Notes under the pieces: model-generated
Told to the model about the DNA's origin: nothing
The model's input: the letters and a program-made list of their open reading frames with translations, nothing else
The model's database searches: none
Translations under genes and position numbers: made by a program
Assembly: GCA_963931685.1 (NCBI GenBank)
Contig: OZ007038.1
Span: forward strand, 1,194,940 to 1,258,939
Length of the DNA: 64,000 nt
Reading direction: 5' to 3'
DNA from: an uncultured Bacilli bacterium
GTDB taxonomy: Bacteria > Bacillota_I > Bacilli_A > RF39 > UBA660
In this document: positions 6,171 through 38,788 of the stretch, piece by piece
Position numbering within the stretch: position 1 is the first letter of the stretch
Layout of the letters: every line of letters begins with the position of its first letter

Positions 6171-6180
6171 TAAATTTTAT

Positions 6181-7850: not shown

Positions 7851-7864
7851 AATTTTATCATCTT

Positions 7865-18097: not shown

Positions 18098-18106
18098 TTA
18101 AACTTT

Positions 18107-19378: not shown

Positions 19379-19399
19379 TTCTAAAGCCAGTAAAAGAGG

Positions 19400-20036: not shown

Positions 20037-20177
20037 GGAAGTATTACCTACCTTTCATGTTATTTTGTGCGTTATTTACAAGTCATATACGACTAATTAA
20101 ATTGTACTTTTTTATTTGTATAACGTCGACGTCATATATGACTAATAACTACCTTTTGTAGAAAGGAGGAAAACTGA

Positions 20178-20447: not shown

Positions 20448-20543
20448 CTAAAATATATTAAATTGTTATAAAATTATTGAAAATTAAAATTGAAAATGAT
20501 AGTATATATAACAATAAATTAATTTTTTAGTTAATTTTTGGGT

Positions 20544-20573
20544 TTGACACTATAAAATGCTGCATGATAAAAT
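20544..20573 (+). promoter_or_regulatory. sigma-A promoter of the methyltransferase/radical-SAM operon
   Basis: TTGACA (20544-20549), 18-nt spacer, extended -10 TGATAAAAT (20565-20573). Confidence 0.5.
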
Positions 20574-20594
20574 ATTTTTGGGTCGTGGTGATTA

Positions 20595-22735: not shown

Positions 22736-24401
22736 CTATTCAGACTATGGCACGCAAAAGTAAAGAGTAATCAGTGATTGATTGCTCTTTTAATTTGCAA
22801 ATAACACTTTATTTTCAAATATTGCATTAATAGACTCAAAAGGGTTTATATTCCTTTTGATAGATGTCTTTATAATTGATAAGGTATTAGCAAAATCTTG
22901 GGCAACATTTATGCTTCTAAAGCCTCCTGATATTTTCGTTTTGTTTTTAAATATTCTTAAATCTCTTTCACTTAGGTTATCATCAAAGGGAACTTTAAAA
23001 TCTTCTATAAAATACAAATGATTTTGTTTATATTTTACCAATCTATTATATAATGGTTTGGCCTTGGTTACCCTGTAATATGAAGATTTTATTTGTTTGT
23101 TTTCTTCTTTGGCTAGCTCTAAAATTTCTTCATATTCATCTTTGTATTCTTTTATCTTATCATCAGAAAATTTTGTTAATCCATAAGCTATAGCTATCTT
23201 TCTTGTATTATTCATTCTAAATATTAAATCATACATTAAAAATGGCCATTTCGTATCTGGTATATTTTCCATCAGTTCCATTAAATATCTTCCCAAGTGA
23301 ATATTACATTCATAATTTTTACTACCATAACTATATAATGTTGTATCATGATCACCCATTATTCCTCCACAAAATCTTGGCAATATATTATCTTCTTTAA
23401 TTGGATTATGACCTTTATTTTTATGAACTTTATAGACTACATTCTCTTCATTACTATAATTTCTTACATATAGCTTTTTCTTATTGAATTTGGTCCCAGT
23501 TTCATCAGTAAATCCATTGTCCTTATTTAAAAAGTTATTTTCTAAATTTATTATTGTAGCTTTACTTTTGTTCCCAAATTCTTTTACAAAATTTACTAAT
23601 GTTCCATTAGAAATATTATAAACATTATTTGTCACCACACTAAAGAAATCACTTAATCTATTATAAGCAACTACGTTATAACATCCTAAATGAATCGATA
23701 ATGTCTTTATACTATTTCCATATGTCACATCTGTATAAAACTCTTTTGGCAGTGTTTCTGAAGACTTATCATCATATTTAAATATATGTTTTTCTATGTA
23801 TGGCTTAATTTCTAATTCATATCTATATTTTATTAAGGGCTCTTTTTTGGGATTACCCTTGATTGTATGAATAATTTCTCTAACTTCAACTTTATTTTCA
23901 CTTATTAATTTTTCTGCATCTTTTTTACTTAAATTATATCCTTGATGATTATATTGACCGCCTTTCTTTTTGCCGGTTATAGTGCGATAATTATATAAAT
24001 TAGCTCCTGTTTTCTTTTTAGGCGTAACAATATTAGTCGATGATGGTTTACTAGAATTATTACTGTTTTTATTATTTTGATTTTTTAGTCTATCTATTTC
24101 ATTTAATAATTTTTGGATAGTTTTATCTTTTTCTAAAATAATAGCTTTTAATTCATCTTGTTTTTCTTTGAACTCTTTTTTCAATTCTTTATTTTCTTTA
24201 AACAATATATCTAACTTATTATTTAATTCTTCGAATTGTCTGTAAAAATCTACAGTTACTGTCATCGTTTTTATGTTTGCCATACTATCACTATCCTCAA
24301 CTATTTTTATTTTCTCACATTTAAACAAAAAAAGCAGCATCGTTGACACTACTTTTGACACTTTATTTAATTTTTTTTATTTTCATAGTCTGAATAGTTA
24401 C
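22732..24401 (-). mobile_element. IS66-family-like insertion sequence, copy B (1670 bp)
   Basis: Same terminal repeats and identical transposase as copy A; 8-bp duplication GTGTATGA at 22724-22731 and 24402-24409. Confidence 0.9.
22790..24361 (-). CDS. IS66-family transposase (identical to 6239-7810)
   Basis: 523-aa product identical to copy A in the supplied translations. Confidence 0.85.
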   Translation of the reverse strand: MSKVVSTMLLFLFKCEKIKIVEDSDSMANIKTMTVTVDFYRQFEELNNKLDILFKENKELKKEFKEKQDELKAIILEKDKTIQKLLNEIDRLKNQNNKNSNNSSKPSSTNIVTPKKKTGANLYNYRTITGKKKGGQYNHQGYNLSKKDAEKLISENKVEVREIIHTIKGNPKKEPLIKYRYELEIKPYIEKHIFKYDDKSSETLPKEFYTDVTYGNSIKTLSIHLGCYNVVAYNRLSDFFSVVTNNVYNISNGTLVNFVKEFGNKSKATIINLENNFLNKDNGFTDETGTKFNKKKLYVRNYSNEENVVYKVHKNKGHNPIKEDNILPRFCGGIMGDHDTTLYSYGSKNYECNIHLGRYLMELMENIPDTKWPFLMYDLIFRMNNTRKIAIAYGLTKFSDDKIKEYKDEYEEILELAKEENKQIKSSYYRVTKAKPLYNRLVKYKQNHLYFIEDFKVPFDDNLSERDLRIFKNKTKISGGFRSINVAQDFANTLSIIKTSIKRNINPFESINAIFENKVLFAN

Positions 24402-24430
24402 GTGTATGAAGATAATTTAAATTCACAAAA

Positions 24431-24460
24431 TTGACTTTTAAGATATTGCTGTGATAAAAT
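24431..24460 (+). promoter_or_regulatory. sigma-A promoter of the Cys-rich peptide gene
   Basis: TTGACT (24431-24436), 18-nt spacer, TGATAAAAT (24452-24460); same architecture as the promoter at 20544. Confidence 0.5.
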
Positions 24461-24481
24461 TGTGGAAAGGAGGAGGTTATA

Positions 24482-24667
24482 ATGAAAATAGCAAAAATTA
24501 GTGCTAAAAACAAAAAGTTTAGAGCTTCTAATTCTATGGCTTCTACTTGTAATTGTGGTGCTTGTAATTGTAATTGCGGTAGTGGAAGTAGCTGCAGTAA
24601 TGTTTTCATTTCACATGAAATTGCATCACTTTTAAATTCTCAAGTTGATCATATTTTAAATGCTTAA
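24482..24667 (+). CDS. 61-aa six-cysteine peptide, candidate RiPP precursor
   Basis: AGGAGG RBS 7 nt before the ATG; core TCNCGACNCNCGSGSSC; lies 80 bp beyond the reconstructed radical-SAM stop. Confidence 0.6.
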   Translation: MKIAKISAKNKKFRASNSMASTCNCGACNCNCGSGSSCSNVFISHEIASLLNSQVDHILNA

Positions 24668-24866
24668 AAAAACTAACTTTTAACCAAGTTAGTAACACAC
24701 TACGATATTGGCTTAGCCAATAACGATGTGTGCCAAAGGGTTTTCCCTTTGGAAACCCCAAACAACACATTTATCAATTAAGGTAATGTGTTGTTTTTAT
24801 ATTGCAAAAAAAGACTATCGCCACTTTCATTGAAACATAGTTTCAACAAAACGTGCCACGTCTTTT

Positions 24867-25304
24867 TTATTTAATATTATGTTGTTGTTTAAGTAATTCT
24901 ATGGTTTCTTTCCTAGCACCACTAATACTAACATAGGTAAATATTTCTGCTATTATTGTTATTATTGTAAAGCCTATCATTACATACAAATTATTTATAA
25001 TACCTTTTTCAACACTATTAAAAAACATAAGAATTAAAAAGATAAGTCCAAATATTACTACAATTATAGTTGTAATATCTGAAAATGATCTATTAATAAT
25101 TTTTGATTTATTAATATCGGAGTTTAGTCCTTCTTTACTCCATTCATTTATAATTAATACTAAAAATATTAAAATTAACGGTGTTGTAAACCAATAATAA
25201 TCAAACATATTATTATTATCAGCAATTCCACTTAAAATTAAAAATAGTATATTTAGAATATTAGTGATTATTAATAAAACATTTAAAACTTTAGTTTTTC
25301 GCAT
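24867..25304 (-). CDS. small integral membrane protein (about 4 TM)
   Basis: 145 aa, four hydrophobic segments; start overlaps the upstream XRE gene by 14 nt. Confidence 0.5.
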   Translation of the reverse strand: MRKTKVLNVLLIITNILNILFLILSGIADNNNMFDYYWFTTPLILIFLVLIINEWSKEGLNSDINKSKIINRSFSDITTIIVVIFGLIFLILMFFNSVEKGIINNLYVMIGFTIITIIAEIFTYVSISGARKETIELLKQQHNIK

Positions 25305-25791
25305 TTTTATTTCTCTCCTTTACTTTGATACTTTGTATTAATTTAATTATTTCATTTGAAGTATTAATTTGGTATTTTGTATCTTCTATGGTATTTAATA
25401 ATAGTTCTTTTTCTTTATCCGTTATATTTTCTTTTTTTAAATTTTCTTCACACGATTCAATTAATTTTTTGTTATTTTCTATACTACCTAATACATTTAT
25501 TTCAGCCGCATTTAATTCTTCCCCTTTTAAATTAGAATAGAAACTTTTAATAAAAGGATTTAATGGACTTACTTGAAAGCCTAAACCTGCAGCATACATT
25601 AAATCATTATAATTAACATCAATGTATTGGCTTATTTTTCGGAGTGTTTTAGGATTTGGCATTTCCCGTTTTCCACTTTCAATTCTCGCTAATTCAGTAT
25701 CACTAATATTAGCTAATCTTGATAATTCCCTTTTTGATAAACCTTTTTCTTCTCTAGCTTTGGCTATCATTTGACCAACAGTTTCATACAT
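25291..25791 (-). CDS. XRE-family HTH regulator with C-terminal helical domain
   Basis: GLSKRELSRLANISDTELARIESGKR HTH; start set at MYETVGQ (ATG 25791 after GGAG). Confidence 0.7.
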   Translation of the reverse strand: MYETVGQMIAKAREEKGLSKRELSRLANISDTELARIESGKREMPNPKTLRKISQYIDVNYNDLMYAAGLGFQVSPLNPFIKSFYSNLKGEELNAAEINVLGSIENNKKLIESCEENLKKENITDKEKELLLNTIEDTKYQINTSNEIIKLIQSIKVKERNKNAKN

Positions 25792-25881
25792 AAGAATACT
25801 CCTCTCTGCTATAAATATAGCATATATTTCGTATTTTTTCAACTAATTTGATGTAAAATAATGACTTTTGCAACTTTTTGG

Positions 25882-25910
25882 TTGACAAAAATGTATTTAT
25901 GTTATATACT
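25882..25910 (+). promoter_or_regulatory. sigma-A promoter ahead of the long xis-int leader
   Basis: TTGACA (25882-25887), 17-nt spacer, TATACT (25905-25910); xis starts about 310 nt downstream. Confidence 0.55.
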
Positions 25911-26228
25911 CAACTTATAGGTTGCACTAGAATTCAATTGTAACCTAAAAAAGGATCTTTGAAAACCGAATAGTGTGCTTACGCTCAGACTGGCCCAGGG
26001 TTTGCTGGGAACGGGAAGTACACGTTAAACAAAAAATCATCCTAATTCATATTAGGAGTTGTGGGTTAGCTAAAACCCTCCTTAGATACATTGCCTAAAA
26101 AGTATGTATACATCCTAAAAGGGAGTTGTCGGTAACACTAAAACCGTCAAAATTTAAGCTATAAGTTTAAATTAATTTATACTACGTATTAAAAAATGAT
26201 AAAATGTACTAGAGAAAGGAGGTGAAAT

Positions 26229-26525
26229 ATGTCCTATGGTGAGCTATATAATGTTATAAATCATGCTTGGGCTAGTTTAAAAGAAATTCAGTTAATAGCA
26301 CAGTGTGGTAGAAAGGCAGCTGAAAATATTAGAGATAATATTAAAAATGATATTATCAATAGTGGTAAAAAACTTCCAGAGGGAAAGACAATAGTAATAC
26401 CTATGAAAAATTTACTAGAATATCTAAATTTAGATTTAGAATATATCACACAAATGGCAATAAATGAGCAAAAATTTAATCTAGCTAATAACAGGACTAA
26501 TAATTATGCCGGTATATCAAGATAA
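26229..26525 (+). CDS. xis: excisionase / recombination-directionality-factor-like small DNA-binding protein
   Basis: 98 aa; overlaps the integrase start by 20 nt; GGAGGTGA RBS; position typical of Xis. Confidence 0.45.
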   Translation: MSYGELYNVINHAWASLKEIQLIAQCGRKAAENIRDNIKNDIINSGKKLPEGKTIVIPMKNLLEYLNLDLEYITQMAINEQKFNLANNRTNNYAGISR

Positions 26526-27603
26526 GAAAACGAAGAAATGGTATTATAGGGCTTATGCTGATGATGTGTATGGAAATCATAAACAATTTGAAAAACATGG
26601 TTTTAAAACTAAAAAAGAGGCAACAACTGCTGAAAGTGAACTATGTACATCGGATGAAAAAGAATGTACGATTAGCTTTATGGAACTGTGGGAAGATTAT
26701 GATAAATATATAAAATTAAAATTAAAAAAACAATCATATAGAAAGACTGTTAGTAAATTTAATAATCATATAATACCATATTTTAAAAAATATAAAGTAA
26801 AATCAATAAACGTTAGTATTTATACAAAATGGCAACAAGAAATTGAGAAAAAGCATTTTAGTCATGATTATAATTCTAGTTTACATTCCTCTATGGTTAC
26901 TATATTAAACTATGCCAAGAAATTTCATGGTTTAAAAGTAAATATAGCTAGTAATGTTGGAAATTTTGTTAAAAAGACAGAGTTACCTAAAAAAGTGGAC
27001 TTTTGGACTTATGAAGAATTTAAGAAATTTATTCAAGTTGTCAAAGAAAAACATTATCAAATATTCTTTGAAACATTATATTTTACTGGTTTAAGACAAG
27101 GAGAATGTTTAGCACTAACTTGGAAAGACTTTAAAGATAATTATTTAGATATATATAAAACTATATCAAAAGAACAAGAAAACGGTCAATATATCATTAA
27201 TACTCCAAAAACAAAAAATTCGATTAGGAAAATTAAAGTTGATAGTCATTTAGTAGGTTTACTCAATGAATTAAAAGAAAGTTATAAAAAATATGAGGGT
27301 TTTAATGATGACTGGTATATATTTGGTGGTATTAAACCTTTTGCTCCTACAACAATCGGTAGGAAAAAAGATAAATATTGTGCGTTAGCAGGTGTAAAAA
27401 AAATAAGAATACATGATTTAAGACATAGCCATGCATCCTTATTACTGTCATTTGGAGTTCCAATTACAGTCATTTCCCAAAGACTTGGACACTCCGATAT
27501 AAATATGACACTTAACACTTACTCACATTTAATGCCTCGTGATGAGGACAAAGCCATCAATATGATTAATGACTTAATAAAATTTAACCCCTTAATAATA
27601 TAG
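26506..27603 (+). CDS. int: tyrosine site-specific integrase
   Basis: N-terminal AP2-like arm domain (KKTKKWYYRAY), SAM-like domain, catalytic TGLRQGE ... HDLRHSHAS ... LGHSDINMTLNTYSH. Confidence 0.92.
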   Translation: MPVYQDKKTKKWYYRAYADDVYGNHKQFEKHGFKTKKEATTAESELCTSDEKECTISFMELWEDYDKYIKLKLKKQSYRKTVSKFNNHIIPYFKKYKVKSINVSIYTKWQQEIEKKHFSHDYNSSLHSSMVTILNYAKKFHGLKVNIASNVGNFVKKTELPKKVDFWTYEEFKKFIQVVKEKHYQIFFETLYFTGLRQGECLALTWKDFKDNYLDIYKTISKEQENGQYIINTPKTKNSIRKIKVDSHLVGLLNELKESYKKYEGFNDDWYIFGGIKPFAPTTIGRKKDKYCALAGVKKIRIHDLRHSHASLLLSFGVPITVISQRLGHSDINMTLNTYSHLMPRDEDKAINMINDLIKFNPLII

Positions 27604-27673
27604 AAATAAGGGCATTTTAAGGGATTAAGTATCATTTATATTATAAAATCCTTATAAAATAAGGGATTATAAA

Positions 27674-27696
27674 CTAAATGGTCGGGAAAACAGGAT
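27674..27696. repeat. att repeat (tRNA-proximal copy)
   Basis: Identical 23-mer to 16975-16997; overlaps the tRNA-Pro 3' end. Confidence 0.85.
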
Positions 27697-27755
27697 TTGA
27701 ACCTGCAACCCCCTGGTCCCAAACCAGGTGCTCTACCAAGTTGAACTATTTCCCG
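27679..27755 (-). tRNA. tRNA-Pro(UGG)
   Basis: Reverse strand CGGGAAA...acceptor, anticodon loop TTTGGGA, T-arm GCAGGTTCAAATCCTGT, encoded CCA. Confidence 0.93.
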
Positions 27756-27761
27756 ATATAA

Positions 27762-27838
27762 TGGCGCGCCCAGTAGGAGTCGAACCCGCAACCTTTTGAT
27801 CCGTAGTCAAACGCTCTATCCAATTGAGCTATGGGCGC
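27762..27838 (-). tRNA. tRNA-Arg(ACG)
   Basis: Reverse strand GCGCCCATAGCTCAATTGGATAGAGC..., anticodon loop CTACGGA, encoded CCA. Confidence 0.93.
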
Positions 27839-27982: not shown

Positions 27983-28009
27983 ACCGTTGAAAATCAACGG
28001 TGTTTTTTC
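27983..28009. terminator. hairpin terminator between tRNA-Phe (original 3' end) and the tRNA-Arg/Pro unit
   Basis: ACCGTTGA-AAA-TCAACGGT stem-loop with T/A runs on both sides. Confidence 0.5.
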
Positions 28010-28012
28010 AAG

Positions 28013-28064
28013 TGGTGGTTTCGGACAGAATCGAACTGCCGACACAGGGATTTTCAGTCCCTTG
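28013..28064 (-). pseudogene. displaced 3' fragment of the original tRNA-Phe (positions ~25-76 incl. CCA)
   Basis: Reverse strand CAAGGGACTGAAAATCCCTGTGTCGGCAGTTCGATTCTGTCCGAAACCACCA; homology stops abruptly at 28064. Confidence 0.85.
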
Positions 28065-28325: not shown

Positions 28326-30087
28326 TTTGTTACTATTCACAGCCTAGAGTAGACAATGAAAGTATCTAGTAAAAATAACTAGGTACTTTTTTACTGTGGA
28401 TAAAGTGGTAAAAACCGTTGGAAAATAAGGGAAAAATCATGATTTAGGTATTGCAAGTTTCATCTTATTTTGATATATTGAATATAGTAAAGGAAGTAAG
28501 ATATATATGCCACTAAAATCAAATTATTCTAATCAATTATTTAATGACTATCAAAAACTAGAAATAAAAAATAAAAAATTAAATATGGAAATTAAAACTT
28601 TAAGATTAGAAAAAAGCTTGTTAAAAGATGAATTAAAAAAACAAAGAGATGAATTAGATGAGAAGAATAAAGAAATTGCTAGATTAAAGTCATTACTTAA
28701 TAATGACGGAACTAATAGTGGCATTTCTACTAGTAAAACTCCTATTAATAAAAACAAAGTTATTCCAAATAGTAGGAAAAAAAGTGGCAAAAAGATAGGC
28801 GAACAAAAAGGTCATAAAAAACATAAATTAGAAAGATTTAAAGATGAAGATGTTACAGAAGTAGAATATATTGAAATGGATAGATGTCCAAATTGTAATC
28901 ATGAATTAATAGATACTAATGAAACTATTGATAAAGATGTTTTGGATTATGAATTAGTTGTGGTTAAAAAAAGAATAAAATTTAAAGAATACAAATGTCC
29001 TTGTTGCGGAAAAAAAATACATTCTAAAATACCTAATGAGTTAAAAGAAGATGTTCAATATGGACCAAATGTAAAATCATTAGTTTTATCATTATTAAAT
29101 GAAGGATACATATCAATTAATAGGGTTAAAAGAATTATTAAAGGATTAAGTCAAGGAGATATAGATTTAAGTGAAAGTTATATAGCTAAAGTACAAAAAG
29201 TAATGTCTGAAAAACTAGATGATTTTAAGCAAGAGGTAACTAGAGAACTTTTAAAAAGAAAATTATTGTATTGGGATGATACAGTAATATTTGTTGATAA
29301 GAAAAGAGCTTGTTTAAGATTTTATGGTGATGAGAAAATAGCTTTATATGTATCACATAAGCAAAAGAACAAAGATGGTCTTGATGAAGATAATATACTA
29401 AAAAATTTAAGTAATCATACAAAGGTAATGCATGACCATAATAAAGTAAATTATAATGAAGAATATTCATTTATAAATTTAGAATGTAATGCCCATCTAC
29501 AAAGAGACTTACAAAAAGTGATAGATAATTTAAAAGCTGATTGGGCCACAAGGTTAAAAACATTAATATCTGAAAGTATTAAACAAAGGAACAAATTTAT
29601 AGAAAACAACTATACTTATAACGATGAATTTAGTAATAACTTCTTTGATAAATTTAATAAAATAATGTTATCAGCCATAGATGAAAACAGAAATAGAGAA
29701 AGTGTTTTTTATAAAGATGAAGAAAAGACATTAATACAAAGGATATTAAATTATAAAGACAACTATTTTGCATGGATAGCAGATTTTACATTACCGACAA
29801 CAAATAATTTATCTGAACGTTCACTTAGATCTAGTAAAACCAAACAGAAAGTATCTGGGCAATTTAAGAATATTGATAGAGCTATGGATTATGCCAATAT
29901 AAAGACATACATAGAGACCAGTTACAGAAATGGTATAAATCCTATGTATGCACTATTTAGACTATCAATAGGTGCCCCCTTTACTTTAGATGAAATTTTG
30001 AACAATGAAAAATTAAGCGAAGAAAAATAGCGAATATCTCCGCTATTTTTAAGTGCCTTTATTTATTAGGCTGTGAATAGTAACAAA
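28326..30087 (+). mobile_element. IS66-family insertion sequence (third, divergent element)
   Basis: Inverted ends TTTGTTACTATTCACAGCCT (28326-28345) and AGGCTGTGAATAGTAACAAA (30068-30087); no clean TSD seen. Confidence 0.7.
28507..30030 (+). CDS. IS66-family transposase (with zinc-finger block)
   Basis: Coiled-coil N-terminus, CPNCNHEL...CPCCGKK zinc finger, C-terminal TNNLSERSLRSSKTKQKVSGQF...GINPM. Confidence 0.85.
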   Translation: MPLKSNYSNQLFNDYQKLEIKNKKLNMEIKTLRLEKSLLKDELKKQRDELDEKNKEIARLKSLLNNDGTNSGISTSKTPINKNKVIPNSRKKSGKKIGEQKGHKKHKLERFKDEDVTEVEYIEMDRCPNCNHELIDTNETIDKDVLDYELVVVKKRIKFKEYKCPCCGKKIHSKIPNELKEDVQYGPNVKSLVLSLLNEGYISINRVKRIIKGLSQGDIDLSESYIAKVQKVMSEKLDDFKQEVTRELLKRKLLYWDDTVIFVDKKRACLRFYGDEKIALYVSHKQKNKDGLDEDNILKNLSNHTKVMHDHNKVNYNEEYSFINLECNAHLQRDLQKVIDNLKADWATRLKTLISESIKQRNKFIENNYTYNDEFSNNFFDKFNKIMLSAIDENRNRESVFYKDEEKTLIQRILNYKDNYFAWIADFTLPTTNNLSERSLRSSKTKQKVSGQFKNIDRAMDYANIKTYIETSYRNGINPMYALFRLSIGAPFTLDEILNNEKLSEEK

Positions 30088-30485
30088 TTTTCCCTATCTT
30101 TTTGCAAATCTTCTTGACTTTGATTATATTTTTTTAGTTTTTTTCTATCCTCTTCATTAACTAATTCATCACTAAAAATATATTTTATATAATTATCAAT
30201 TATTGGCTTGTTTATTCCAACTGCATCGCATAAACTAAGTAACCTTTGTTCTTCTGCTTGTTGTTTTGCTTTTATCTCTTTGTTTCTTTGGGCTAATTCT
30301 AACTCTCGCTGTTTAGTTTGTCTTTCTTGTTCTAATAATGCTTGCTGTTGTAATAATTTATTTTGTTCTTCCAAAAGTTTATTTTGAGTTTCTTGTTGTT
30401 CGTACCTATTATCAGCAGCTATCATTTGATCAACTATATCCATACCATTGTCCGTCTTTTCCCCTAAATAGTCCCATAACTTCAT
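30066..30485 (-). CDS. coiled-coil protein (3' end fused into the IS66 terminal repeat)
   Basis: 139 aa, Q/E/K-rich heptad-like centre; last codons and stop lie inside the IS right end; 4-nt overlap with the upstream gene. Confidence 0.5.
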   Translation of the reverse strand: MKLWDYLGEKTDNGMDIVDQMIAADNRYEQQETQNKLLEEQNKLLQQQALLEQERQTKQRELELAQRNKEIKAKQQAEEQRLLSLCDAVGINKPIIDNYIKYIFSDELVNEEDRKKLKKYNQSQEDLQKDRENLLLFTA

Positions 30486-31012
30486 TTCTCCTTATTTAAT
30501 TTATTAATTGAAATAACATTACTCATAGTCTTAATGTACTCTATTAAAGCTTTGTCAGGTTTAGAAAACTCCATTCCAACAATAACTGTGATACCATGAT
30601 TTTTTAAACTATATAATGATTCAAATAATGCTTTCTTATCTGTTTTAGCTTCTTCTAATAAAACAAACGAATCAATTACTAATACCTTAATATTTTTCTC
30701 TTTGATGGTATTAATAATGTCTTTTATACCGATTTTTGAATTATCCACAACATAAATATTATCTAATGTTAAATTTATATCTGAATAAGTTTTTGCTCGT
30801 TTAATTATGTAATCACTTTTACTTAATAATGATATAAACATTAGTTTATTTTTTTTATCAAGTTCATTGATTAACTTTAATAATAACCTAATTAACCCCT
30901 GATCTTTATTACTATATACCACTGTAATATTATTTATAATATTATCCAAAGGTGGTATATAATCTGCCATTACCGCTTGCCGGCTTGTAATGGTGGTTAT
31001 TTTATTTGTCAT
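30482..31012 (-). CDS. small RecA/KaiC-fold-like protein, no Walker A (paralog 2)
   Basis: 176 aa; VLVIDSFVLL (Walker-B-like strand) and HGITVIVGMEF; aligns with 31027-31524; no GxxxxGK(S/T). Confidence 0.4.
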   Translation of the reverse strand: MTNKITTITSRQAVMADYIPPLDNIINNITVVYSNKDQGLIRLLLKLINELDKKNKLMFISLLSKSDYIIKRAKTYSDINLTLDNIYVVDNSKIGIKDIINTIKEKNIKVLVIDSFVLLEEAKTDKKALFESLYSLKNHGITVIVGMEFSKPDKALIEYIKTMSNVISINKLNKEK

Positions 31013-31026
31013 TTAAAACACACTCC

Positions 31027-31524
31027 TTATGTAATCACCATTCCTCCCAAATTTTCTACGTACATTATTATTTCATCAATACAGCTTAATTCTGAATTTA
31101 TAATTATAGTTATTCCTTGCTCGCAAATATAATGTAATAAACTAAATAGTTCTTCATAGTTATGGTTAAGCAAAAGCTGAAACTCATCAATGACTAATAT
31201 TTTGCTGTTAGTTTCATTAACCATTTTCATTATAGATTCAGGTTTTATATTATCTATATCTTCATAAACAATGTTTGTAGACTGGATTATATCTAAATTA
31301 GCTTTAGTACTGATGTATAAAATTGGATAACTTTTACACAGTAACTTAACTAAATTTATAAATACTGATTTTTTATAATTTTCATATTCGCCAAAAATAA
31401 AAGTAATATGATTTATAATGGTATCTAAATCATAAACATAATTTTCATTTAATACATCTTTTGACTCCAACAGACAAGCTGATCCTTTATAAGAACTTAC
31501 AGTCTTTTTTGATAATGCTTTCAT
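31027..31524 (-). CDS. small RecA/KaiC-fold-like protein, degenerate Walker A (paralog 1)
   Basis: ATG 31524 after GAGGGAG; FGEYENYKKS in the P-loop position, ILVIDEFQLL Walker-B-like, QGITIIINSE. Confidence 0.4.
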   Translation of the reverse strand: MKALSKKTVSSYKGSACLLESKDVLNENYVYDLDTIINHITFIFGEYENYKKSVFINLVKLLCKSYPILYISTKANLDIIQSTNIVYEDIDNIKPESIMKMVNETNSKILVIDEFQLLLNHNYEELFSLLHYICEQGITIIINSELSCIDEIIMYVENLGGMVIT

Positions 31525-31546
31525 AATAAACTCCCTCAAACCTATA

Positions 31547-33311
31547 GGTAGTGTGAATAGTTTATTACACTACCCATGACTTTTTCTTTATATTTAAAGG
31601 CTTTTCTTAACAATTTACTTATGACTCCCTTTTTGGAGTAAATATTTTGTTAAAATTTACCTTTTTATCTATCAAAAAATGACAAATACCTCTATAATAA
31701 TTTTAGAACATATAGAAATGAGGTATCTGTCATGTCTAAAATTATATCAGTTTTAATTGAATTTTTAAATAGAATTAATAAAATTATTTGGAAATTTATT
31801 ATTTTTCTGTCAAAATTTATCAAAGTAAATGATGTAATCACCAGTAATAAACCTACTGATGAAAAATATAAACTGTTTAAAGTTGATGATTCTCCTTTAA
31901 TAGAACCTTTTGTAAAACTGGAACATAAAGATTATAAAAAACTCATCAAAGAAAACAACATTAAACCTATTATTCGTCGCAATGGTAAATCTCTTATTCC
32001 ATATAATATCAAATGCCCTTGTTGTGGAGCTCCTAAAGATTATCTTTATGATAATACTGGTAAACAAAATCAATTTGAATGTAAGGTCTGTCATCATATT
32101 TTTTCTAATAATCCTCACAAACAAAATGATGTTGTTTTAAAATGCCCTCACTGTGAACATCAACTTGTTTTAAGAAAGCAAAGAACTGATTATGATGTAT
32201 ATGTCTGTAAGAATAACAAATGCAGATACTATTTAAACAATTTAGCTACTTTAACTTTATCTGATAAGAAAAAGTTTGAAGAAAATCCTACATTATTTAA
32301 AATGCATTACATATATCGTAAATTTCATATTGACTTACCTACTTTAACCAAAGATTATCGTGATTTTGTAAAGCAACCTGTTGATCTTTCTAAAATTTAT
32401 TCTTCAGATTATGTCCTTGGTTTATGCCTTACTTATCATGTTAATTATGGGCTTTCTTATAGACAAACTTCTTCTATTTTAAAAGACATTCATGAAGTGT
32501 CTATTTCTTATAAGAATGTTGAAAATTATTGTAAATCAGTTTCTCCTACCATCCAAACGTTACTTGAATTTTATCCTTACGAACTGTCAGATACCATTGC
32601 TGCAGATAAAACTTATATTAAAATATTAGGTAAAACTGCTTATATATTTTTCTACTTTGATGCCATTAAAAAGATTGTTACTTCTTACAGAGTCTTTGAT
32701 AAAAGAAATTCTTTATCTTCTATCAAAACAGCTTATTCTACCTTATCCAAATACGACAAACTTCCAGATAGTTTAAAAGTAATTTCTGATGGTAATCCTA
32801 TTTATAACGTTGCTGTTCAGTATTGGTGTCAAAATGGTTTACCTTTTGAATTATATCAGATTATTGGACTTACAAATCTAGATGAAACTTCCAAAGAGTA
32901 CCGTAGTCAAAAACAAATTATTGAAAGATTCAATCGAACTTTAAAATATTACTACAGACCAAAAGGTGGTTTTTCATCTTTAGATAATGCCAATAATTAT
33001 ATGGTTTTATTTGCCACTTATAACAATTTTTTAAGACCAAATAAAGCTCTTAACTATGAAACTCCTGTTGTTCTAGAGGAACTCAAAGATATTCCTAATA
33101 TGCCGAACAAGTGGCTTGAACTAATAAGACTTGCTTGTAAATATGCAGAACCATATTCTGAATAGTTTTTAAAAATTACATTAAAAACTACTTTTTGTCG
33201 TGGACTAATTTCCTGATTTTTTATTAAGTCTATTTTCAAAGATCAATTCTATCACCAAATTGATAGATTTTTTTGTTAGTGTTAGTTTTCCATAAAACTT
33301 TTCACACTATC
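31547..33311 (+). mobile_element. IS6-family-like insertion sequence (boundaries approximate)
   Basis: Imperfect inverted ends GGTAGTGTGAATAGTTTA (31547-) and TAAAACTTTTCACACTATC (-33311); no 8-bp TSD detected. Confidence 0.55.
31732..33165 (+). CDS. DDE transposase, IS6-like core with N-terminal multi-zinc-ribbon extension
   Basis: CPCCG..CKVCHH..CPHCEH..CKNNKC ribbons; DKTYIKILGK ... SDGNPIYN ... IERFNRTLKYY DDE-like blocks. Confidence 0.65.
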   Translation: MSKIISVLIEFLNRINKIIWKFIIFLSKFIKVNDVITSNKPTDEKYKLFKVDDSPLIEPFVKLEHKDYKKLIKENNIKPIIRRNGKSLIPYNIKCPCCGAPKDYLYDNTGKQNQFECKVCHHIFSNNPHKQNDVVLKCPHCEHQLVLRKQRTDYDVYVCKNNKCRYYLNNLATLTLSDKKKFEENPTLFKMHYIYRKFHIDLPTLTKDYRDFVKQPVDLSKIYSSDYVLGLCLTYHVNYGLSYRQTSSILKDIHEVSISYKNVENYCKSVSPTIQTLLEFYPYELSDTIAADKTYIKILGKTAYIFFYFDAIKKIVTSYRVFDKRNSLSSIKTAYSTLSKYDKLPDSLKVISDGNPIYNVAVQYWCQNGLPFELYQIIGLTNLDETSKEYRSQKQIIERFNRTLKYYYRPKGGFSSLDNANNYMVLFATYNNFLRPNKALNYETPVVLEELKDIPNMPNKWLELIRLACKYAEPYSE

Positions 33312-33334
33312 TCTTTTTAAATCAATCAAAATAC

Positions 33335-33461
33335 TTTAAATATAATACAACATAATTACCCAAAATAAACAACGTGTGAGAAACAAAGAGAATGGGGCAA
33401 TATGCAAATAAGATAAATTTAGAATTACAAAGCTAACAACAAGTGTGGACAAAATTAGTCT
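33335..33461. repeat. 127-bp module, copy L (downstream of the array, upstream of the RecA-like operon)
   Basis: Near-identical to 38256-38382 (a few substitutions, two 1-nt indels); contains TGTGGACAA at 33444-33452. Confidence 0.85.
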
Positions 33462-34321
33462 ATTCCTAGTAACTTGTTATATTCTTCCTCGGTTAAGGCT
33501 TGAACTACACAATCACTTGTTTCAAAATTCGGTAATATTTCTTTAATAGTTTTTCTTAATTTTTTATTATTTAATTCAAAAAAGTTATCATAATATATAT
33601 GTAATACATAAGAATCTTTACCTCGATTGCAATACCGACTCTTTATTTCACTTATATTACTAGAAAATAAACCGATGGGGGAATCTGTAAAATCTTTATA
33701 TAATTGAACAAAAGCTGAACTATCTAATAATTTAATATTTTCATACCTTACAATGTCAAATCCTCCAATAATGTAATCGCCTTGTTTAACTAAGGCTTTA
33801 TATTTTTTACAAAAAGAAATTTTTTTACCATTATATACACACTTTAATAATTTAGAATTTGACCAATCAACATTATTTTTGTAGTCATTATCTGCTAAAT
33901 CATAATTGATTAAATAATAATTTTTCGGATAAAATTTTATATCAACTATATTCGGTATTACTTCTACATAATTTTGTAATGCTATAACTCTTTCTATTTC
34001 ACTTTCCCAACCATATTTTTCGTTTAAATAGCTATGTAAATGACAATCATCTTTCCAACATATAAGTACATCTATGGGGCTCTTTTTAAAAAACGCTTGA
34101 TATTTACTCTTTAATAAATAATCACTTGATAAATATTCAAAGATAATAGTCCTTTCTTTATAATGCGAATAAATTTTTGTACCATTTGGTTGTAATTCAT
34201 CATAGGATAAAATATTACCAAGTCTAGGAAAACCTAATTGATCGTGCAATTGTCCAAATAATACTTTAACATCTGTTACAGAATTAACCGGTGAATAAAT
34301 TTTAATTTTTTCGCTACACAT
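33455..34321 (-). CDS. array paralog P1: conserved N-domain + PUA/EVE-like C-terminal region
   Basis: 288 aa; blocks KIYSP, LHDQLGFP, FEYLSSDY, ICWKDDC, YYLINYDL, GDYIIGGFDIVRYENI, LTEEEYNKLLG. Confidence 0.6.
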   Translation of the reverse strand: MCSEKIKIYSPVNSVTDVKVLFGQLHDQLGFPRLGNILSYDELQPNGTKIYSHYKERTIIFEYLSSDYLLKSKYQAFFKKSPIDVLICWKDDCHLHSYLNEKYGWESEIERVIALQNYVEVIPNIVDIKFYPKNYYLINYDLADNDYKNNVDWSNSKLLKCVYNGKKISFCKKYKALVKQGDYIIGGFDIVRYENIKLLDSSAFVQLYKDFTDSPIGLFSSNISEIKSRYCNRGKDSYVLHIYYDNFFELNNKKLRKTIKEILPNFETSDCVVQALTEEEYNKLLGID

Positions 34322-34362
34322 TTATTACAACTCCTTTAGATTTGCTTATAAAATTTGTGAAT

Positions 34363-35241
34363 CTAAATATCCATTACTCTTTGACAAAACTTTTTATCTA
34401 TGCCTAGTAATTTGTTATATTCTTCCTCGGTTAAAGCTTGAACTGCACAATCACTTGTTTCAAAATTTGGTAATATTTCTTTAATAGTTTTTCTTAATTT
34501 TTTATTATTTAATTCAAAAAAATTACTGTAAAATATGTGATTAACATTTTGATTAGCATATTGTTTTTTTATGTCGCTTATATTACTAGAAAATAAACCG
34601 ATGGGTGAATCTGTAAAATTTTTATATAATTGAACAAAAGCTGACCTATCTAATAATTTGATATTTTCATACCTTACAATGTCAAAGCCTCCAATAATGT
34701 AATCACCATCTTTGATTAAAGCTTTACTTCCATCTGTTATCTTAATATTTTTATTGTTTTTAAATTTTAATAATTTAGTATTCAATAGATCAACATAACC
34801 TTTGTAATTCTCTTTCACCAAATCATAATCTATTAAATAATAAAGGTTCTTATTCCTAGATTTATAATCAACTATATCCGGTATTACTTCTACATAATTT
34901 TGTAATGCTATGACTCTTTCTATTTTACTTTCCTGATTATAATTATTCTTTAAATAACTCTTTAAATGACAATCATCTTCCCAACAAACAAGAACTACAT
35001 AAAAATGATCGTATTTTTTCAATAAATAATCACTTGATAAATATTCAAAAATAATATTTCCAGACATATACGATTCCTTACCACGAGACAAATCCAAATG
35101 ATGAAGGAACATAATAACATTATTATCTTGAAGGGAAACAAGTCTAGGAAAACCTAATTGCTTATGCAATTTTCCAAATAATATTTTAACATCTGTTACA
35201 GAATTAACCGGTGAATAAATTTTCATTTTTTCATGACACAT
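34363..35241 (-). CDS. array paralog P2
   Basis: 292 aa; same blocks; 45-nt leader and first ~35 codons near-identical to P1; ~165-nt 3' segment identical to P3. Confidence 0.6.
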   Translation of the reverse strand: MCHEKMKIYSPVNSVTDVKILFGKLHKQLGFPRLVSLQDNNVIMFLHHLDLSRGKESYMSGNIIFEYLSSDYLLKKYDHFYVVLVCWEDDCHLKSYLKNNYNQESKIERVIALQNYVEVIPDIVDYKSRNKNLYYLIDYDLVKENYKGYVDLLNTKLLKFKNNKNIKITDGSKALIKDGDYIIGGFDIVRYENIKLLDRSAFVQLYKNFTDSPIGLFSSNISDIKKQYANQNVNHIFYSNFFELNNKKLRKTIKEILPNFETSDCAVQALTEEEYNKLLGIDKKFCQRVMDI

Positions 35242-35265
35242 TTATTACAACTCCTTTAGATTTGC

Positions 35266-36147
35266 TTATAAAATTTGTGAATCTAGATAATAATTATTTT
35301 TTGATATACATTTTTTATCTATTCCTAGTAATTTGTTATATTCTTCCTCGGTTAAAGCTTGAACTGCACAATCACTTGTTTCAAAATTTGGTAATATTTC
35401 TTTAATAGTTTTTCTTAATTTTTTATTATTTAATTCAAAAAAATTACTGTAAAATATGTGATTAACATTTTGATTAGCATATTTTTCAATTACCTCATCA
35501 CAGTCTAAAAAGACTAAACCAACAGGATAATCAGTTAATCTTTTATATGACTCAATAAAATTACGATCATTTGGTATCCATATATTTTCATACCTTACAA
35601 TGTCAAAGCCTCCAATAATGTGATCACCATCTTTGATTAAAGCTTTACTTCCATTTCCAATAAGAATGTAATCTCCCTTAAATCTAAATAACCTAGAATT
35701 TTTCCAATCAACATAACTTTTGTAATCGTCGCCTGCTAAATCATAATTGATTAAATAATACTTGTATTCTGGTTTTAATTCTTCACCACCAATATTGTTT
35801 ACAAATTCAACATGATTTTTTAACTCTATTATTTGTATATCGTTCTTATAATTTTCTTGTAAATAAATATTTAACTTACAATCGTCTTCCCAACATACAA
35901 GTATATGTTTTTTATTTCTTGACATAGATATTTGACGATTATGTAATAAATAATCGCTTGATAAATATTCAAAGTCTACTGTTACCTCTTCATACTGATT
36001 TTTACTTTTATTCCAATGTTTTGCCTTTTTTATAAACATTTTGTCATGAACCGAATACTCAATAAATGGAAAACCTAATTGCTCGTGAAATTTAGCAAAT
36101 AATACTATTACATCTAATGAAGATAAAACTGGAGAGTAAATTTTCAT
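35266..36147 (-). CDS. array paralog P3
   Basis: ATG 36147 (MKIYSP) after GAGGTG; same blocks; its stop lies in the shared leader of P2. Confidence 0.6.
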   Translation of the reverse strand: MKIYSPVLSSLDVIVLFAKFHEQLGFPFIEYSVHDKMFIKKAKHWNKSKNQYEEVTVDFEYLSSDYLLHNRQISMSRNKKHILVCWEDDCKLNIYLQENYKNDIQIIELKNHVEFVNNIGGEELKPEYKYYLINYDLAGDDYKSYVDWKNSRLFRFKGDYILIGNGSKALIKDGDHIIGGFDIVRYENIWIPNDRNFIESYKRLTDYPVGLVFLDCDEVIEKYANQNVNHIFYSNFFELNNKKLRKTIKEILPNFETSDCAVQALTEEEYNKLLGIDKKCISKNNYYLDSQIL

Positions 36148-36189
36148 TTTTATACACCTCACTATCAAATATTTACTTTAAAATTTATA

Positions 36190-36771
36190 TGCCTAATAAT
36201 TTTATCAACCACCCTGCACTGAAAGTGCAGGGTTTGTAGTGATGACTGAAAGTCATACTATGCTAAAGCATACTATCTTGTCTAAAAATATCATCAACAT
36301 TATCATTTTGATTTTCTATATATTCTTCTATCATATCTTGTGTTACTTTTCCTACACTTCTACAAAAATATCCCGTCGCCCACATGTGCTGACCCCAAAA
36401 TTGTTTTCTTAAACTCGGAAATTCTTCTTGTAATTTTTTCGAACTTCTCCCTTTAATATATTGCATAACTTGAGATACAGAAAGTGATGCTGGAATACTT
36501 AATAGCAAATGTACGTGTTCTGGTTGGATGTTTCCTCTTACAATTGTTATTCCTTTTGCTGTGCATCCTTGCATCAACAATATTTTTAATCTATTTACTA
36601 TTTTCCCTCTTAATATCTTTCTTCTATACTTTGTTATCCATACTACATGTACTTCCAAATCATATTGTGTGTGGGCTCCTCTTCTCATTTGTATCACCAC
36701 AATGTATTGTAATACTTTTTGTTTGTTTTTTCCAGTCCTTGAAGGATTTATGTGGCTAAAGCCAATGGATA
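36190..36771 (-). mobile_element. IS200-type element (tnpA only) inserted between P4 and P3
   Basis: Y1 transposase gene plus subterminal hairpins CCCTGCACT-GAA-AGTGCAGGG (36212-36232) and ATGACT-GAA-AGTCAT (36242-36256); ends approximate. Confidence 0.6.
36263..36700 (-). CDS. tnpA: IS200/IS605-family Y1 (HUH) transposase TnpA
   Basis: HVVWITKYRRK, HVHLL (HUH) and ATGYF catalytic-Tyr blocks. Confidence 0.9.
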   Translation of the reverse strand: MVIQMRRGAHTQYDLEVHVVWITKYRRKILRGKIVNRLKILLMQGCTAKGITIVRGNIQPEHVHLLLSIPASLSVSQVMQYIKGRSSKKLQEEFPSLRKQFWGQHMWATGYFCRSVGKVTQDMIEEYIENQNDNVDDIFRQDSML

Positions 36772-37281
36772 TTATCCTCCAGTGCTTAGCATATTATATT
36801 GTATTTCTTCTATTTGCTGAACAATACAATTTTTTATTTCTAGGTCTGGCAATATTTCTTGAACTGTTTTTCTTAATTTTTTATTATCTAATTCAAAAAA
36901 ATTCTTATAAAATATGTGTCCAACATAATGGTTAGCATATTCTTTTGCGATATCATAATATGAAAGGGCAAAGAAAGTAACCGGATAATCTGTTAATTTT
37001 TTGTATAAATTAATATAATCTGGTTGATTAAACATTTTAATGTTTTTAAATTTTACAACATCAAAACCCCCTAAAATATAATCACCATCTTTAACTAATA
37101 CTTTGCTTCCACTTGTTATATTTATTTTTTCATCATTAATAAATCTATATATAGATGAATTATACCAATTAACAAAAGGACTATAATTCTTATCTAAATC
37201 ATAATTAATTAAATAATAACCAATTTTGTCATCTTTTTCATTAGTCGTATTTAAGATATTTTTTTTAGATTCATTATTCAA
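36772..37281 (-). CDS. array paralog P4: stand-alone PUA/EVE-like region (no N-domain)
   Basis: 169 aa; TTG start 9 nt after AAGGAGGTG; YYLINYDL, GDYILGGFDVVKFKNI, FFELDNKKLRKTVQEILP; the C-terminal tail abuts the IS200 end. Confidence 0.55.
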   Translation of the reverse strand: MNNESKKNILNTTNEKDDKIGYYLINYDLDKNYSPFVNWYNSSIYRFINDEKINITSGSKVLVKDGDYILGGFDVVKFKNIKMFNQPDYINLYKKLTDYPVTFFALSYYDIAKEYANHYVGHIFYKNFFELDNKKLRKTVQEILPDLEIKNCIVQQIEEIQYNMLSTGG

Positions 37282-37359
37282 ACTGAATACACCTCCTTAA
37301 ATAGTAATTACCAAAGTGTGCTTTTAATTACAACCGCTTTGGAAAAAAATAACAAAATT

Positions 37360-38202
37360 TTAACTTTGTCCTAATAGTTTGTTATATTGTTCTTCAGTTA
37401 AGGTTTGAACTGCTGCATTACTTATACCCAAATCGGGTAATATTTCTTTAACAGTTCTCCTTAAGTTTTTATCACTCAATTCAAAGAAGTTATTATAAAA
37501 TATATGTCCAATATTATTATTTACATATTCAGATTTTATTTCATTAGGTGATGATACAAATAGATCTACTGGATAATCAGTTAATGTCTTATATATTGAA
37601 ATCGTATCATTGTTATTAGTTAATTTAATATTTTTGAATCTTACAATGTCAAAGCCTCCAATAATGTAATTACCTTGTTTAACTAAGGCTTTGCTTCCAT
37701 CTGTTATCTTAATATTGTTATTGTTTTTAAATCTATACATATTGGCGTTACGCCAAGCTGAAAAAGGTGTATAATCTGCTTCTTTAAGATTATAGTTTAT
37801 TAAATAATATTTAATATCATGTTCTTCTTCTATTATATTATCCGGTTTAATTTCAACGTAATTTTTTAATTCAATTATTTTATATAAATCTTTTTTATAA
37901 TTTTCTTTTATATAGCCTTTTAAATTACAATTATCTTCCCAACAAACAACTATATATTTCTTATCATCTTGCATATCGTTTTGATGTCCATGTAATATAA
38001 AATTACTCGATAGGTACTCAAATTCTATAACTACACGGTGAATGCCTTTTTCATCATGATATTCAATGTTTTCTATATCAAATCCTCTAGCGGAGGATGA
38101 TACTAATTTGGGGAAGCCTAATTTCTCATGTAATTTAGCAAATAACATTACTACACCTAATTCTTCTTTAATAGGTGAATAAATTTTAATTTTGTTCTCC
38201 AT
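37360..38202 (-). CDS. array paralog P5 (first gene of the array)
   Basis: 280 aa; GFDIENIEY..VVIEFEYLSSNFILHGH..YIVVCWEDNC, then YYLINYNL ... GNYIIGGFDIVRFKNI ... LTEEQYNKLLG. Confidence 0.6.
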   Translation of the reverse strand: MENKIKIYSPIKEELGVVMLFAKLHEKLGFPKLVSSSARGFDIENIEYHDEKGIHRVVIEFEYLSSNFILHGHQNDMQDDKKYIVVCWEDNCNLKGYIKENYKKDLYKIIELKNYVEIKPDNIIEEEHDIKYYLINYNLKEADYTPFSAWRNANMYRFKNNNNIKITDGSKALVKQGNYIIGGFDIVRFKNIKLTNNNDTISIYKTLTDYPVDLFVSSPNEIKSEYVNNNIGHIFYNNFFELSDKNLRRTVKEILPDLGISNAAVQTLTEEQYNKLLGQS

Positions 38203-38255
38203 AATTTTTACACCTCAAGTGTAATTATACATTACCAAAAGTATAAAAGCAAGTA

Positions 38256-38382
38256 TTTACAATATAATACGGCATAATTACCCAAAATAAACCCACGTGA
38301 GAAACAAAGAGAATGGGGCAATATGCAAATAAGATAAATTAAGAATTACAAAGCTAACAACAAGTGTGGACAAAATTAGTCT
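38256..38382. repeat. 127-bp module, copy R (upstream of the array)
   Basis: Near-identical to 33335-33461; ends with TGTGGACAAAATTAGTCT. Confidence 0.85.
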
Positions 38383-38452: not shown

Positions 38453-38528
<76 letters not shown>

Positions 38529-38745: not shown

Positions 38746-38788
38746 GAGGATTTTCAGTCCCTTGCTCTACCGACTGAGCTACGAAACC
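38746..38788 (-). pseudogene. displaced 5' fragment of the original tRNA-Phe (positions 1 to ~41)
   Basis: Reverse strand GGTTTCGTAGCTCAGTCGGTAGAGCAAGGGACTGAAAATCC, then unrelated sequence. Confidence 0.85.

Follow-up and report, generated by a model that had tools for sequence, protein, structure and literature searches.

The DNA analysed here is a window of 64,000 nt from the genome of an uncultured Bacilli bacterium (contig OZ007038.1, positions 1,194,940 to 1,258,939), and it contains a tandem array of five homologous genes, designated P5 to P1, all on the minus strand. The array lies in a 10.7-kb island that is rich in insertion sequences (IS) and splits a chromosomal tRNA-Phe gene at the anticodon arm. 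The analysis placed the host no more closely than among the uncultured, low-GC, spore-forming Bacillota. The five same-strand open reading frames (ORFs) reported in the first-pass annotation are present, and the motif blocks quoted there were found in them. P5 (37360..38202, 280 amino acids) is the canonical family member. It consists of a nuclease-like domain of the D...ExE type at the N-terminus (residues 1-120, nt 38202-37843), a flexible linker of about residues 121-130, and a C-terminal PUA-like reader domain of about residues 131-280. P4 (36772..37281, 169 amino acids, with a TTG start codon) is a reader-only paralog without a nuclease domain. P3 (35266..36147, 293 amino acids) and P2 (34363..35241, 292 amino acids) are derived paralogs, and P1 (33455..34321, 288 amino acids) is the most derived one. 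The protein identities of P1-P4 to P5 are 45-52%.

The Shine-Dalgarno (SD) motif and the start codon are preserved for each copy of the array. The SD motif of P5 is GAGGTG at 38216-38211, and the same motif precedes the functional start codon of P3, which is the ATG at 36147 and not a TTG further upstream. The SD motif of P4, AAGGAGGTG, is located 8 nt 5' of the TTG start codon, so that the earlier description of P4 as the second region alone, with a strong SD motif and a TTG start, was correct. A promoter-like site is present upstream of P5, with a -35 element TTGCTT at 38252-38247 and a -10 element TATAAT at 38229-38224; scans for promoters and terminators carry little information here because the DNA is AT-rich, as 50 promoter-like sites were found and 43 were expected. 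Minus-strand terminator-like sites were not detected within the array, by a scan with the same limitation. Because the array lacks such an internal site, P4-P1 and P5 probably share one transcript starting at the promoter, which lies downstream of an intergenic repeat module, R, that is described below. The intergenic leader between P5 and P4 (70 nt, window 37289-37357, including the SD motif of P4) recurs with 96% identity at 8353-8422 of the related contig L037, downstream of a DnaB_C gene. This leader resembles a second module of the reusable kind, and it probably marks the route by which P4 lost its nuclease domain.

The five copies were compared at the positions that are conserved in at least 88% of 25 homologs from outside this lineage, i.e. 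40 positions of the N-terminal and 25 positions of the C-terminal domain. P5 has kept nearly all of them (39 of 40 and 23 of 25). The numbers are lower for P3 (23 of 40 and 18 of 25), P2 (20 of 40 and 16 of 25) and P1 (18 of 40 and 14 of 25); P4, with no N-terminal domain, has kept 19 of the 25 C-terminal positions. Missing from P1-P3 are E13/E14 and G16 as well as, at the aligned position, RGFD. The aspartate of the PD motif is replaced by asparagine in P1 and P3, and the alignment is ambiguous at this position in P2. E60 is replaced by isoleucine in P1 and P2, and the ExE motif of P3 has become DFE. Both histidines of the HxH motif are lost in P1 and P2 (P2 has KKY), the motif is half-lost in P3 (HNR), and H73 is gone in all three. 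The RGFDI hairpin, which bears the PD-aspartate, is highly conserved in 25 of 25 outside homologs and in P5, and it has been lost only in P1-P3. The acidic residues of the D...ExE motif are likewise kept by P5 and all outside homologs, but not by P1-P3, and P4 is devoid of the domain. In the first-pass annotation, the stretch between GFP.L and FEYLSS had been regarded as a hypervariable specificity region and the array as a set of five diversified enzymes. Neither view could be upheld. The stretch is the catalytic beta-hairpin and is conserved outside P1-P3, and because the hairpin is present in the homologs and in P5 and missing only from P1-P3, the pattern is one of active-site loss in the derived copies and not of specificity diversification. 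Within the array, P5 alone is predicted to be catalytically competent.

The N-terminal domain of P5 belongs to a module with a much wider distribution than the two-domain family. An exhaustive profile search with this domain yielded 948 proteins (E<1e-3), of which only about 30 representatives contain both domains. The remaining proteins align only over residues ~7-117, and the module is found at either terminus. They occur in bacteria as well as in archaea (Methanobacterium, Bathyarchaeia), and the fusion partners include EVE, HARE-HTH, ParB_N, homing-endonuclease (HNH)-associated repeats, DUF5655 and zinc fingers (P0060-P0181). A true EVE domain is the partner in P0060 (by Pfam) and in P0087, P0097 and P0113 (by phmmer). 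Over the module itself, Pfam, NCBIfam and PADLOC gave no match in P5 or in the scanned partner proteins. In 50 diverse members of the superfamily, D42, E60, E62 and C87 are invariant, and E14, G16, H71 and W88 are nearly so. The consensus GVV.LF..L...LGF / FPDC / V.IEFEY.S.NF..H.H / CD.I.CW.DD represents a PD...ExE signature. BamHI, with its residues D, E and E, is a known example of an enzyme that has ExE where others have ExK.

The structure of the N-terminal domain alone was predicted with AlphaFold2 (AF2) at a mean local confidence score (pLDDT) of 96.4. The aspartate is located at the start of one strand and the ExE motif inside the next one. The order of the elements is compatible with an alpha-beta-beta-beta-alpha-beta core, although DSSP calls no strand after helix 1, where one would be expected. 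A Foldseek search of the PDB resulted in no significant match for this domain (best E=0.16, template modelling score (TM) <=0.4), and the top ranks of the weak fold matches were occupied by MspJI (4f0p), MUS81, Cap4, EndoMS, McrC and VC1899. Because of this lack of a significant fold match, the assignment of the domain as a likely PD-(D/E)xK-type nuclease is based on motifs, topology and fusion partners, and not on fold proof. The PD-(D/E)xK-type core suspected earlier is backed by the invariant residues D42, E60 and E62 and by the compatible order of secondary-structure elements, but the structure search contributed only weak matches to restriction folds at its top.

The prediction for full-length P5, for which AlphaFold2 was used together with the family alignment, showed two domains (pLDDT 86) connected by the linker, which has a low confidence. 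For the C-terminal domain, the top match of Foldseek in the PDB was ZmASCH (5y6b, chain B; E=7.5e-6, TM 0.69), followed at lower significance by the N-terminal domain of McrB (6n0s, 4.4e-4), TTHA0113 (2dp9, 1.6e-3) and the EVE-HNH enzyme VcaM4I (6yex, 7.6e-3). In a library of viral structures (BFVD), ASCH proteins were also retrieved first (4.5e-6). On the basis of these predicted structures, the C-terminal domain is a PUA-like barrel that is closest to ASCH. Its conserved aromatic residues are Y132, Y137, W150 and Y236.

The two-domain family comprises 35 clusters among 5.8 billion proteins, and none of them has a name. Searches of Pfam, NCBIfam and PHROGs with the five array proteins yielded nothing significant. 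All other full-length loci (16 of 16) harbour a single copy within +/-10 kb, and the tandem array is specific to this lineage. The distribution of homologs over the phyla is patchy and includes metagenome-assembled genomes of Clostridia, Bacilli and Tenericutes, Sporanaerobium, Actinomycetota, Spirochaetales and Acidobacteriota. Many loci have a divergent XRE/HTH_3 gene directly upstream of the homolog, which is phage-repressor-like in one case (L009). Among 143 neighbouring ORFs at 13 loci, HTH_3, resolvase, PcfJ/PcfK, DnaB_C, SSB and ResIII were recurrent, and a full Gabija pair was present at one of the 13 loci. Further neighbours are a Type I restriction-modification (R-M) system (L041), an HNH gene with Dcm and an SbcCD-like pair (L001), and a PDC-S26-like nuclease together with a serine recombinase (L037). 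The methylases that occur near some homologs belong to other systems. Homologs were not found in deposited phage and plasmid genomes, and IMG/VR contained a single locus (L054; UViG_3300048599_000773, 5944-8505). At this locus, HsdR and a Fic toxin are encoded upstream of the homolog, and a Type IV restriction gene, GmrSD_N (DUF262), starts 4 nt after it, so that it forms a compact defence cluster on a contig that is classed as viral. Judging from these neighbourhoods, the family behaves as cargo of mobile elements and defence islands.

The array copies have exchanged sequence with one another. P2 and P3 are exactly identical over 160 nt at their 3' ends, while about 165 nt had been reported initially. 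P1 and P2 share an identical run of 50 nt, which is composed of the 44-nt leader (not 45) and the first 6 nt of the genes, and their first ~30 codons (not ~35) are 89-96% identical. P5 and P2 have an exact block of 31 nt in common. When the identity between copies was determined in sliding windows, blocks of 90-100% were found to alternate with stretches of 30-50%, and the C-terminal domains diverge most at columns 131-170 and 201-240. A Sawyer-type permutation test, which evaluates runs of shared variable sites, was applied to this mosaic. Conversion was indicated between P3 and P2 (codon columns 240-297, p<1e-4) and between P5 and P2 (codon columns 171-185, p<1e-4), and for P2/P1, P4/P1 and P3/P1 at various codon columns (p=0.003-0.03). 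The mosaic conservation that had been attributed to gene conversion is thus non-random. The process appears in strain comparisons as well, where fresh conversion tracts dominate the differences, e.g. residues 191-227 of P2, which are derived from P3 in one contig (L038), and residues 225-245 of P1 in another (L049). Segments of P1, P2 and P3 are combined in chimeric variants found in the databases (P0015-P0020).

In P5, strain differences cluster at window positions 37400-37420, with the exchanges S261K, N262W, A263G and A264G accompanied by indels. This cluster in the reader domain resembles the outcome of a frameshift with compensation, or else of conversion over a short tract.

An inversion switch of the shufflon (hsdS) type was also considered and was rejected. 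All copies are in direct orientation, inverted repeats within the array are limited to AT-rich chance matches of 71-77%, and the island in the window contains no recombinase. The change within the array is ascribed to gene conversion, and not to recombinase-driven inversion, because all copies are direct and inverted repeats are missing. A serine recombinase gene is present at the end of the element in L037.

The interpretation that we favour, with a confidence only a little above even, is that the array consists of one active nuclease, P5, and four non-catalytic reader paralogs of a lineage-specific tandem expansion. P4-P1, in which the nuclease domain is missing or its active site degenerate, are regarded as non-catalytic readers and not as enzymes in their own right because they are intact, have ribosome-binding sites of their own, are probably co-transcribed with P5, and show purifying selection and ongoing conversion. 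The analysis shows the homology, the predicted folds, which motifs are kept or lost, the conversion tracts and the genomic surroundings, whereas catalysis, the binding of a modified base, a function in defence and what the dead copies do are inferred. The mechanism is proposed to be as follows. P5 would be a Type IV-like, methylase-independent defence nuclease that mobile elements carry along as cargo. As in the PUA-nuclease fusions that have been characterised, the PUA-like barrel would recognise a base that is modified or unusual in some other way in the nucleic acid of an invader, and the D...ExE module would cut near the recognised base. P4-P1 might partner with P5, broaden its activity or restrain it. 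A Type IV-like, modification-dependent nuclease is the best reading because of the architecture and the mobile and defence context. A reader joined to a putative nuclease, with no DNA methyltransferase domain in the scanned ORFs of the island, and a location in mobile or defence surroundings, as expected for Type IV systems, were both found, but this location is not universal (L004).

Several results weigh against this interpretation. The alignment of the hairpin is uncertain for P1-P3, and P2 may retain the aspartate, so that 'dead' is a prediction. The limits of the variant counts and of the substitution rates, given below with the values, have to be added, as has the absence of a significant fold match for the N-terminal domain. 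The C-terminal domain had no match in Pfam at E<=1 and hence no membership in EVE (PF01878) or ASCH, a family profile retrieved no PDB sequence at E<=10, and a comparison of the C-terminal domain with the EVE domains fused to the same N-terminal module gave an hhalign probability of 0.3%. Membership of the C-terminal domain in the EVE family is ruled out by the latter value. The original proposal of a PUA/EVE/ASCH module is consequently right for the PUA-like barrel as recognised by Foldseek, and at the sequence level the domain is neither EVE nor ASCH. Moreover, ASCH domains are mostly RNA-associated, and many bind RNA. PADLOC-DB v2 has no system model for the family, and partial matches at chance level (E>=3e-4) were obtained for two of the five array proteins. 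The expected mobile-element and defence context was found at many loci, but several homologs reside among housekeeping genes (L004; ScpA/B, DnaA, PBP5).

The first alternative is neutral decay, i.e. P4-P1 could be functionless leftovers of an amplification, the ORFs of which have been kept open by a recent origin and by homogenising conversion, while P5 alone matters. In both domains, the number of conserved residues indeed declines step by step from P5 to P1, and the ratio of nonsynonymous to synonymous substitution rates (dN/dS) between the paralogs' N-terminal domains is relatively high (0.5-0.75). In addition, loss of the nuclease domain recurs elsewhere. P0047 (318-809 of L053) is 96% identical to residues 109-270 of the full-length protein P0028 and occupies the same slot after an XRE gene, and P0022 (978-1451 of L052) is encoded by a gene that comprises the reader alone and has an R module and a near-consensus promoter of its own; on this sequence evidence, the nuclease domain has been lost independently in other lineages. 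However, the synonymous divergence (dS) between the paralogs is 0.4-1.2, which indicates that the copies are old, although it is near saturation and thereby limits the value of dN/dS. Frameshifts or stop codons were not found in any copy, and none of the copies is disrupted in eight other contigs that were compared, which come from several samples and in some cases contain a partial array. The synonymous:nonsynonymous variant sites between strains were 14:17 for P5, 6:5 for P4 and 4:5 for P3, and a comparison of the window with L037 yielded 12:12 for P1-P3 together; these counts are low, and they are confounded by tracts of conversion, in which the classification of sites is unreliable. The ratios of the derived copies are thus about equal, as is that of P5, and a neutral expectation would be about 1:4, as deduced from site counts. 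From these data, the derived copies P4-P1 appear to be under purifying selection and not decaying. The preserved SD motifs and start codons and the strong promoter of the standalone reader elsewhere also argue against decay, and we consider this explanation unlikely.

Two further alternatives assign other roles to the non-catalytic copies, and each is regarded as rather improbable. One of them is self-protection, in which the paralogs would be antitoxin-like competitors that occupy marked sites of the host and shield the chromosome from P5. This would fit the maintenance of readers with dead or missing nuclease domains beside a single active copy. It would also fit the composition of the island, as DNA methyltransferase domains were not detected in its scanned ORFs and an XRE controller, which accompanies most of the single-copy homologs, is missing from it. 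A precedent is the truncated McrB-S form, which modulates McrBC. Yet four diverged inhibitors seem excessive, and reader-only genes also occur on short contigs that contain no full-length partner. According to the other alternative, P5 would be the only cutting enzyme and the expression site, and conversion into its barrel from the four reader paralogs as donor cassettes, as well as conversion among these paralogs, might reprogram in the manner of pilE/pilS the choice of base modification that is recognised, or the dead paralogs might hetero-oligomerise for combinatorial recognition.

The model closest to the first-pass annotation, in which modification-dependent nuclease activity is retained by all five gene products and their specificities differ through the variable segments, is quite improbable. 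All five genes are intact with SD motifs of their own, the variable columns of the C-terminal domain (131-170 and 201-240) could line a pocket, and gene conversion could shuffle specificity segments. But the N-terminal domain varies most in the catalytic hairpin, a part that does not vary in homologs from outside, and the residues missing from P1-P3 (E14, G16 and the aligned RGFD), the additional loss of E60 and the HxH histidines in P1 and P2, and the lack of any nuclease domain in P4 are difficult to reconcile with five active enzymes. Least probable of all, and very doubtful in our view, is a target other than invading DNA, with the proteins directed against RNA, e.g. tRNA or rRNA with modifications (in the role of a toxin or of an effector of abortive infection), or involved in the maintenance or homing of mobile elements; the best structural match, ZmASCH, which we take to be a ribonuclease although it is listed only as an ASCH protein, the prevalence of RNA association among ASCH domains, the fusions of the N-terminal module to homing-endonuclease-associated repeats and ParB_N and the tRNA-associated island would be in its favour, but the fusions to HARE-HTH and EVE and the proximity of GmrSD and Type I R-M genes point to DNA, and the closest architectural analogues are DNA-directed modification-dependent restriction endonucleases (MDREs; PMC6765204, PMC7897488).

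With one active P5 nuclease and four reader paralogs as the favoured reading, the surroundings of the array are described next. A BLAST search with the tRNA revealed the fragments of the split tRNA-Phe gene, and therefore the claim that the array sits in an IS-ridden island inside a tRNA gene proved to be right. The left junction (38746..38788, minus strand), beside a tRNA-Asp gene, is formed by 43 nt from the 5' end of the ancestral gene that was interrupted, and the right junction (28009..28060, minus strand) by ~50 nt from its 3' end. Both fragments contain the same 17-nt core of the anticodon arm, CAAGGGACTGAAAATCC. The gene is not regenerated at the junction; instead, the island carries an intact replacement tRNA-Phe 217 nt inside its end (38453..38528, minus strand), which was detected by ARAGORN, has compensatory changes in the anticodon stem compared with the interrupted copy and is followed by a terminator hairpin. 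A search of the whole window with Rfam detected only tRNAs.

Between P4 and P3, an IS200-type element is inserted (36204..36793, minus strand), with terminal hairpins and a Y1 transposase gene at 36263-36700 (Pfam Y1_Tnp, 1e-41). It is a clean insertion of 590 bp in comparison with two contigs, L037 and L038, that contain the same five genes without IS200, and the insertion is a recent one. The island also contains an IS66 transposase gene (28507-30030, plus strand), an IS6-like transposase gene (31732-33165, plus strand), and three small ORFs (30066-31539, minus strand), two of which are DnaB_C/KaiC-like. These two adjacent ORFs (176 and 170 amino acids, 30482-31539) have weak similarity to ATPases of the KaiC/DnaB_C/RadA type, and the pair looks like tandem truncated C-terminal domains of a replicative helicase. 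A DnaB_C gene also follows the array in L037.

The array is bracketed by R, a direct repeat of 133 nt. Like the recent IS200 insertion, this repeat had gone unmentioned in the first-pass annotation. Copy A (38251..38382, minus strand) is an intergenic module upstream of P5 that contains TTGTCCA motifs, and copy B (33329..33461, minus strand), which is 99% identical over 86 nt, starts at the stop codon of P1. In L037, R-like copies (1688-1793, 3278-3405, 7604-7756) precede the gene of a PDDEXK_4/PADLOC PDC-S26-like nuclease, the array, and the DnaB_C gene, the last of them being the counterpart of copy B, and in L052 a copy of R (~800-930) precedes the standalone reader-only gene and is followed by the near-consensus promoter. 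It was considered whether R is the att site of the array, and this was rejected, as R precedes unrelated genes in L037 and L052 and the junctions of the island are the split tRNA-Phe. From its positions, R would be a reused regulatory module. The TTGTCCA motif is present 16 times in the window, while 5.6 copies are expected, and it clusters inside both ends of the island (28198, 28208 and 28235; 38644 and 38655). It may be an operator or a recombinase-binding motif.

A second integrated element is located at 16980-27838. The 3' 18 nt of a tRNA-Pro gene (27679-27755) are repeated at 16980-16997 and bracket about 10.7 kb. This stretch encodes a tyrosine integrase (26506-27603), a Mob_Pre relaxase (18107-19378) and an IS66 transposase, as well as a radical-SAM protein, an RlmA-like methyltransferase and an HTH regulator.

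The general logic of the proposed system is known, as the fusion of a PUA-type reader with a nuclease is an established route to modification-dependent restriction. Among Type IV enzymes, the fusion of PUA or EVE readers to nucleases of the HNH or PD-(D/E)xK type has been established or predicted (PMC7641849, PMC6765204, PMC7897488), and ASCH is among the sensor domains of MDREs (PMC12191111). The screened MDREs have an N-terminal sensor and a C-terminal nuclease (PMC6765204), and this order is reversed in the array family. The EVE-HNH enzymes VcaM4I and TspA15I (PMC7897488, PMC6765204) resemble P5 in that a single polypeptide combines a reader of the PUA superfamily with a nuclease and has no cognate methylase. 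However, their nuclease is a C-terminal HNH domain and their reader an N-terminal Pfam EVE domain, whereas P5 has an N-terminal D...ExE module and a reader that corresponds to neither the EVE nor the ASCH model. The predicted EVE-PD(D/E)XK Type IV enzymes (Bell, Wolf and Koonin 2020, PMC7641849) and YenY4I (PUA-DUF3427-PD-(D/E)XK, PMC6765204) are similar in the combination of a PUA-like reader with a PD-(D/E)xK-type nuclease, but their readers belong to a different family, and the nuclease module of the array family has no Pfam model. Enzymes of the MspJI family (4f0p) likewise couple a reader to a compact nuclease of the restriction fold, and their nuclease domain is the top, though weak, match of the N-terminal domain (E=0.16); in contrast to P5, the reader of MspJI is SRA-like and N-terminal, and the match is not significant. 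The ASCH proteins ZmASCH (5y6b) and TTHA0113 (2dp9) provide the best fold matches to the C-terminal domain, but similarity at the sequence level is lacking. The strand order of the conserved motifs in this domain looks as EVE-like as ASCH-like. The GxKxxExR motif, presumably the signature of ASCH, is not evident in it.

New features are a reader family that is recognised by neither Pfam nor PADLOC, and a nuclease-like module for which Pfam has no model and for which a curated model would flag many candidate defence genes. A further one is the tandem array itself, with one predicted catalytic copy and four maintained, recombining, putatively non-catalytic reader paralogs; in the full-text literature searches, no tandem array of such genes in which just one copy is catalytic was found described. 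Nucleases with specificity for modified bases are also useful reagents in epigenetic mapping. If the dead copies modulate or retarget P5, the array would be a simple natural system in which pseudo-enzymes and gene conversion broaden immune specificity.

With regard to the process, phase-variable hsdS shufflons are one case in which recognition domains are shuffled. The closest analogue is the 'domain movement' of R-M systems in H. pylori (PMC3467074), where parts of defence genes are exchanged through homologous recombination of paralogous segments. In both cases the difference from the array is that here gene conversion takes place among direct repeats, and that the donors are expressed-looking ORFs with putatively dead nuclease domains.

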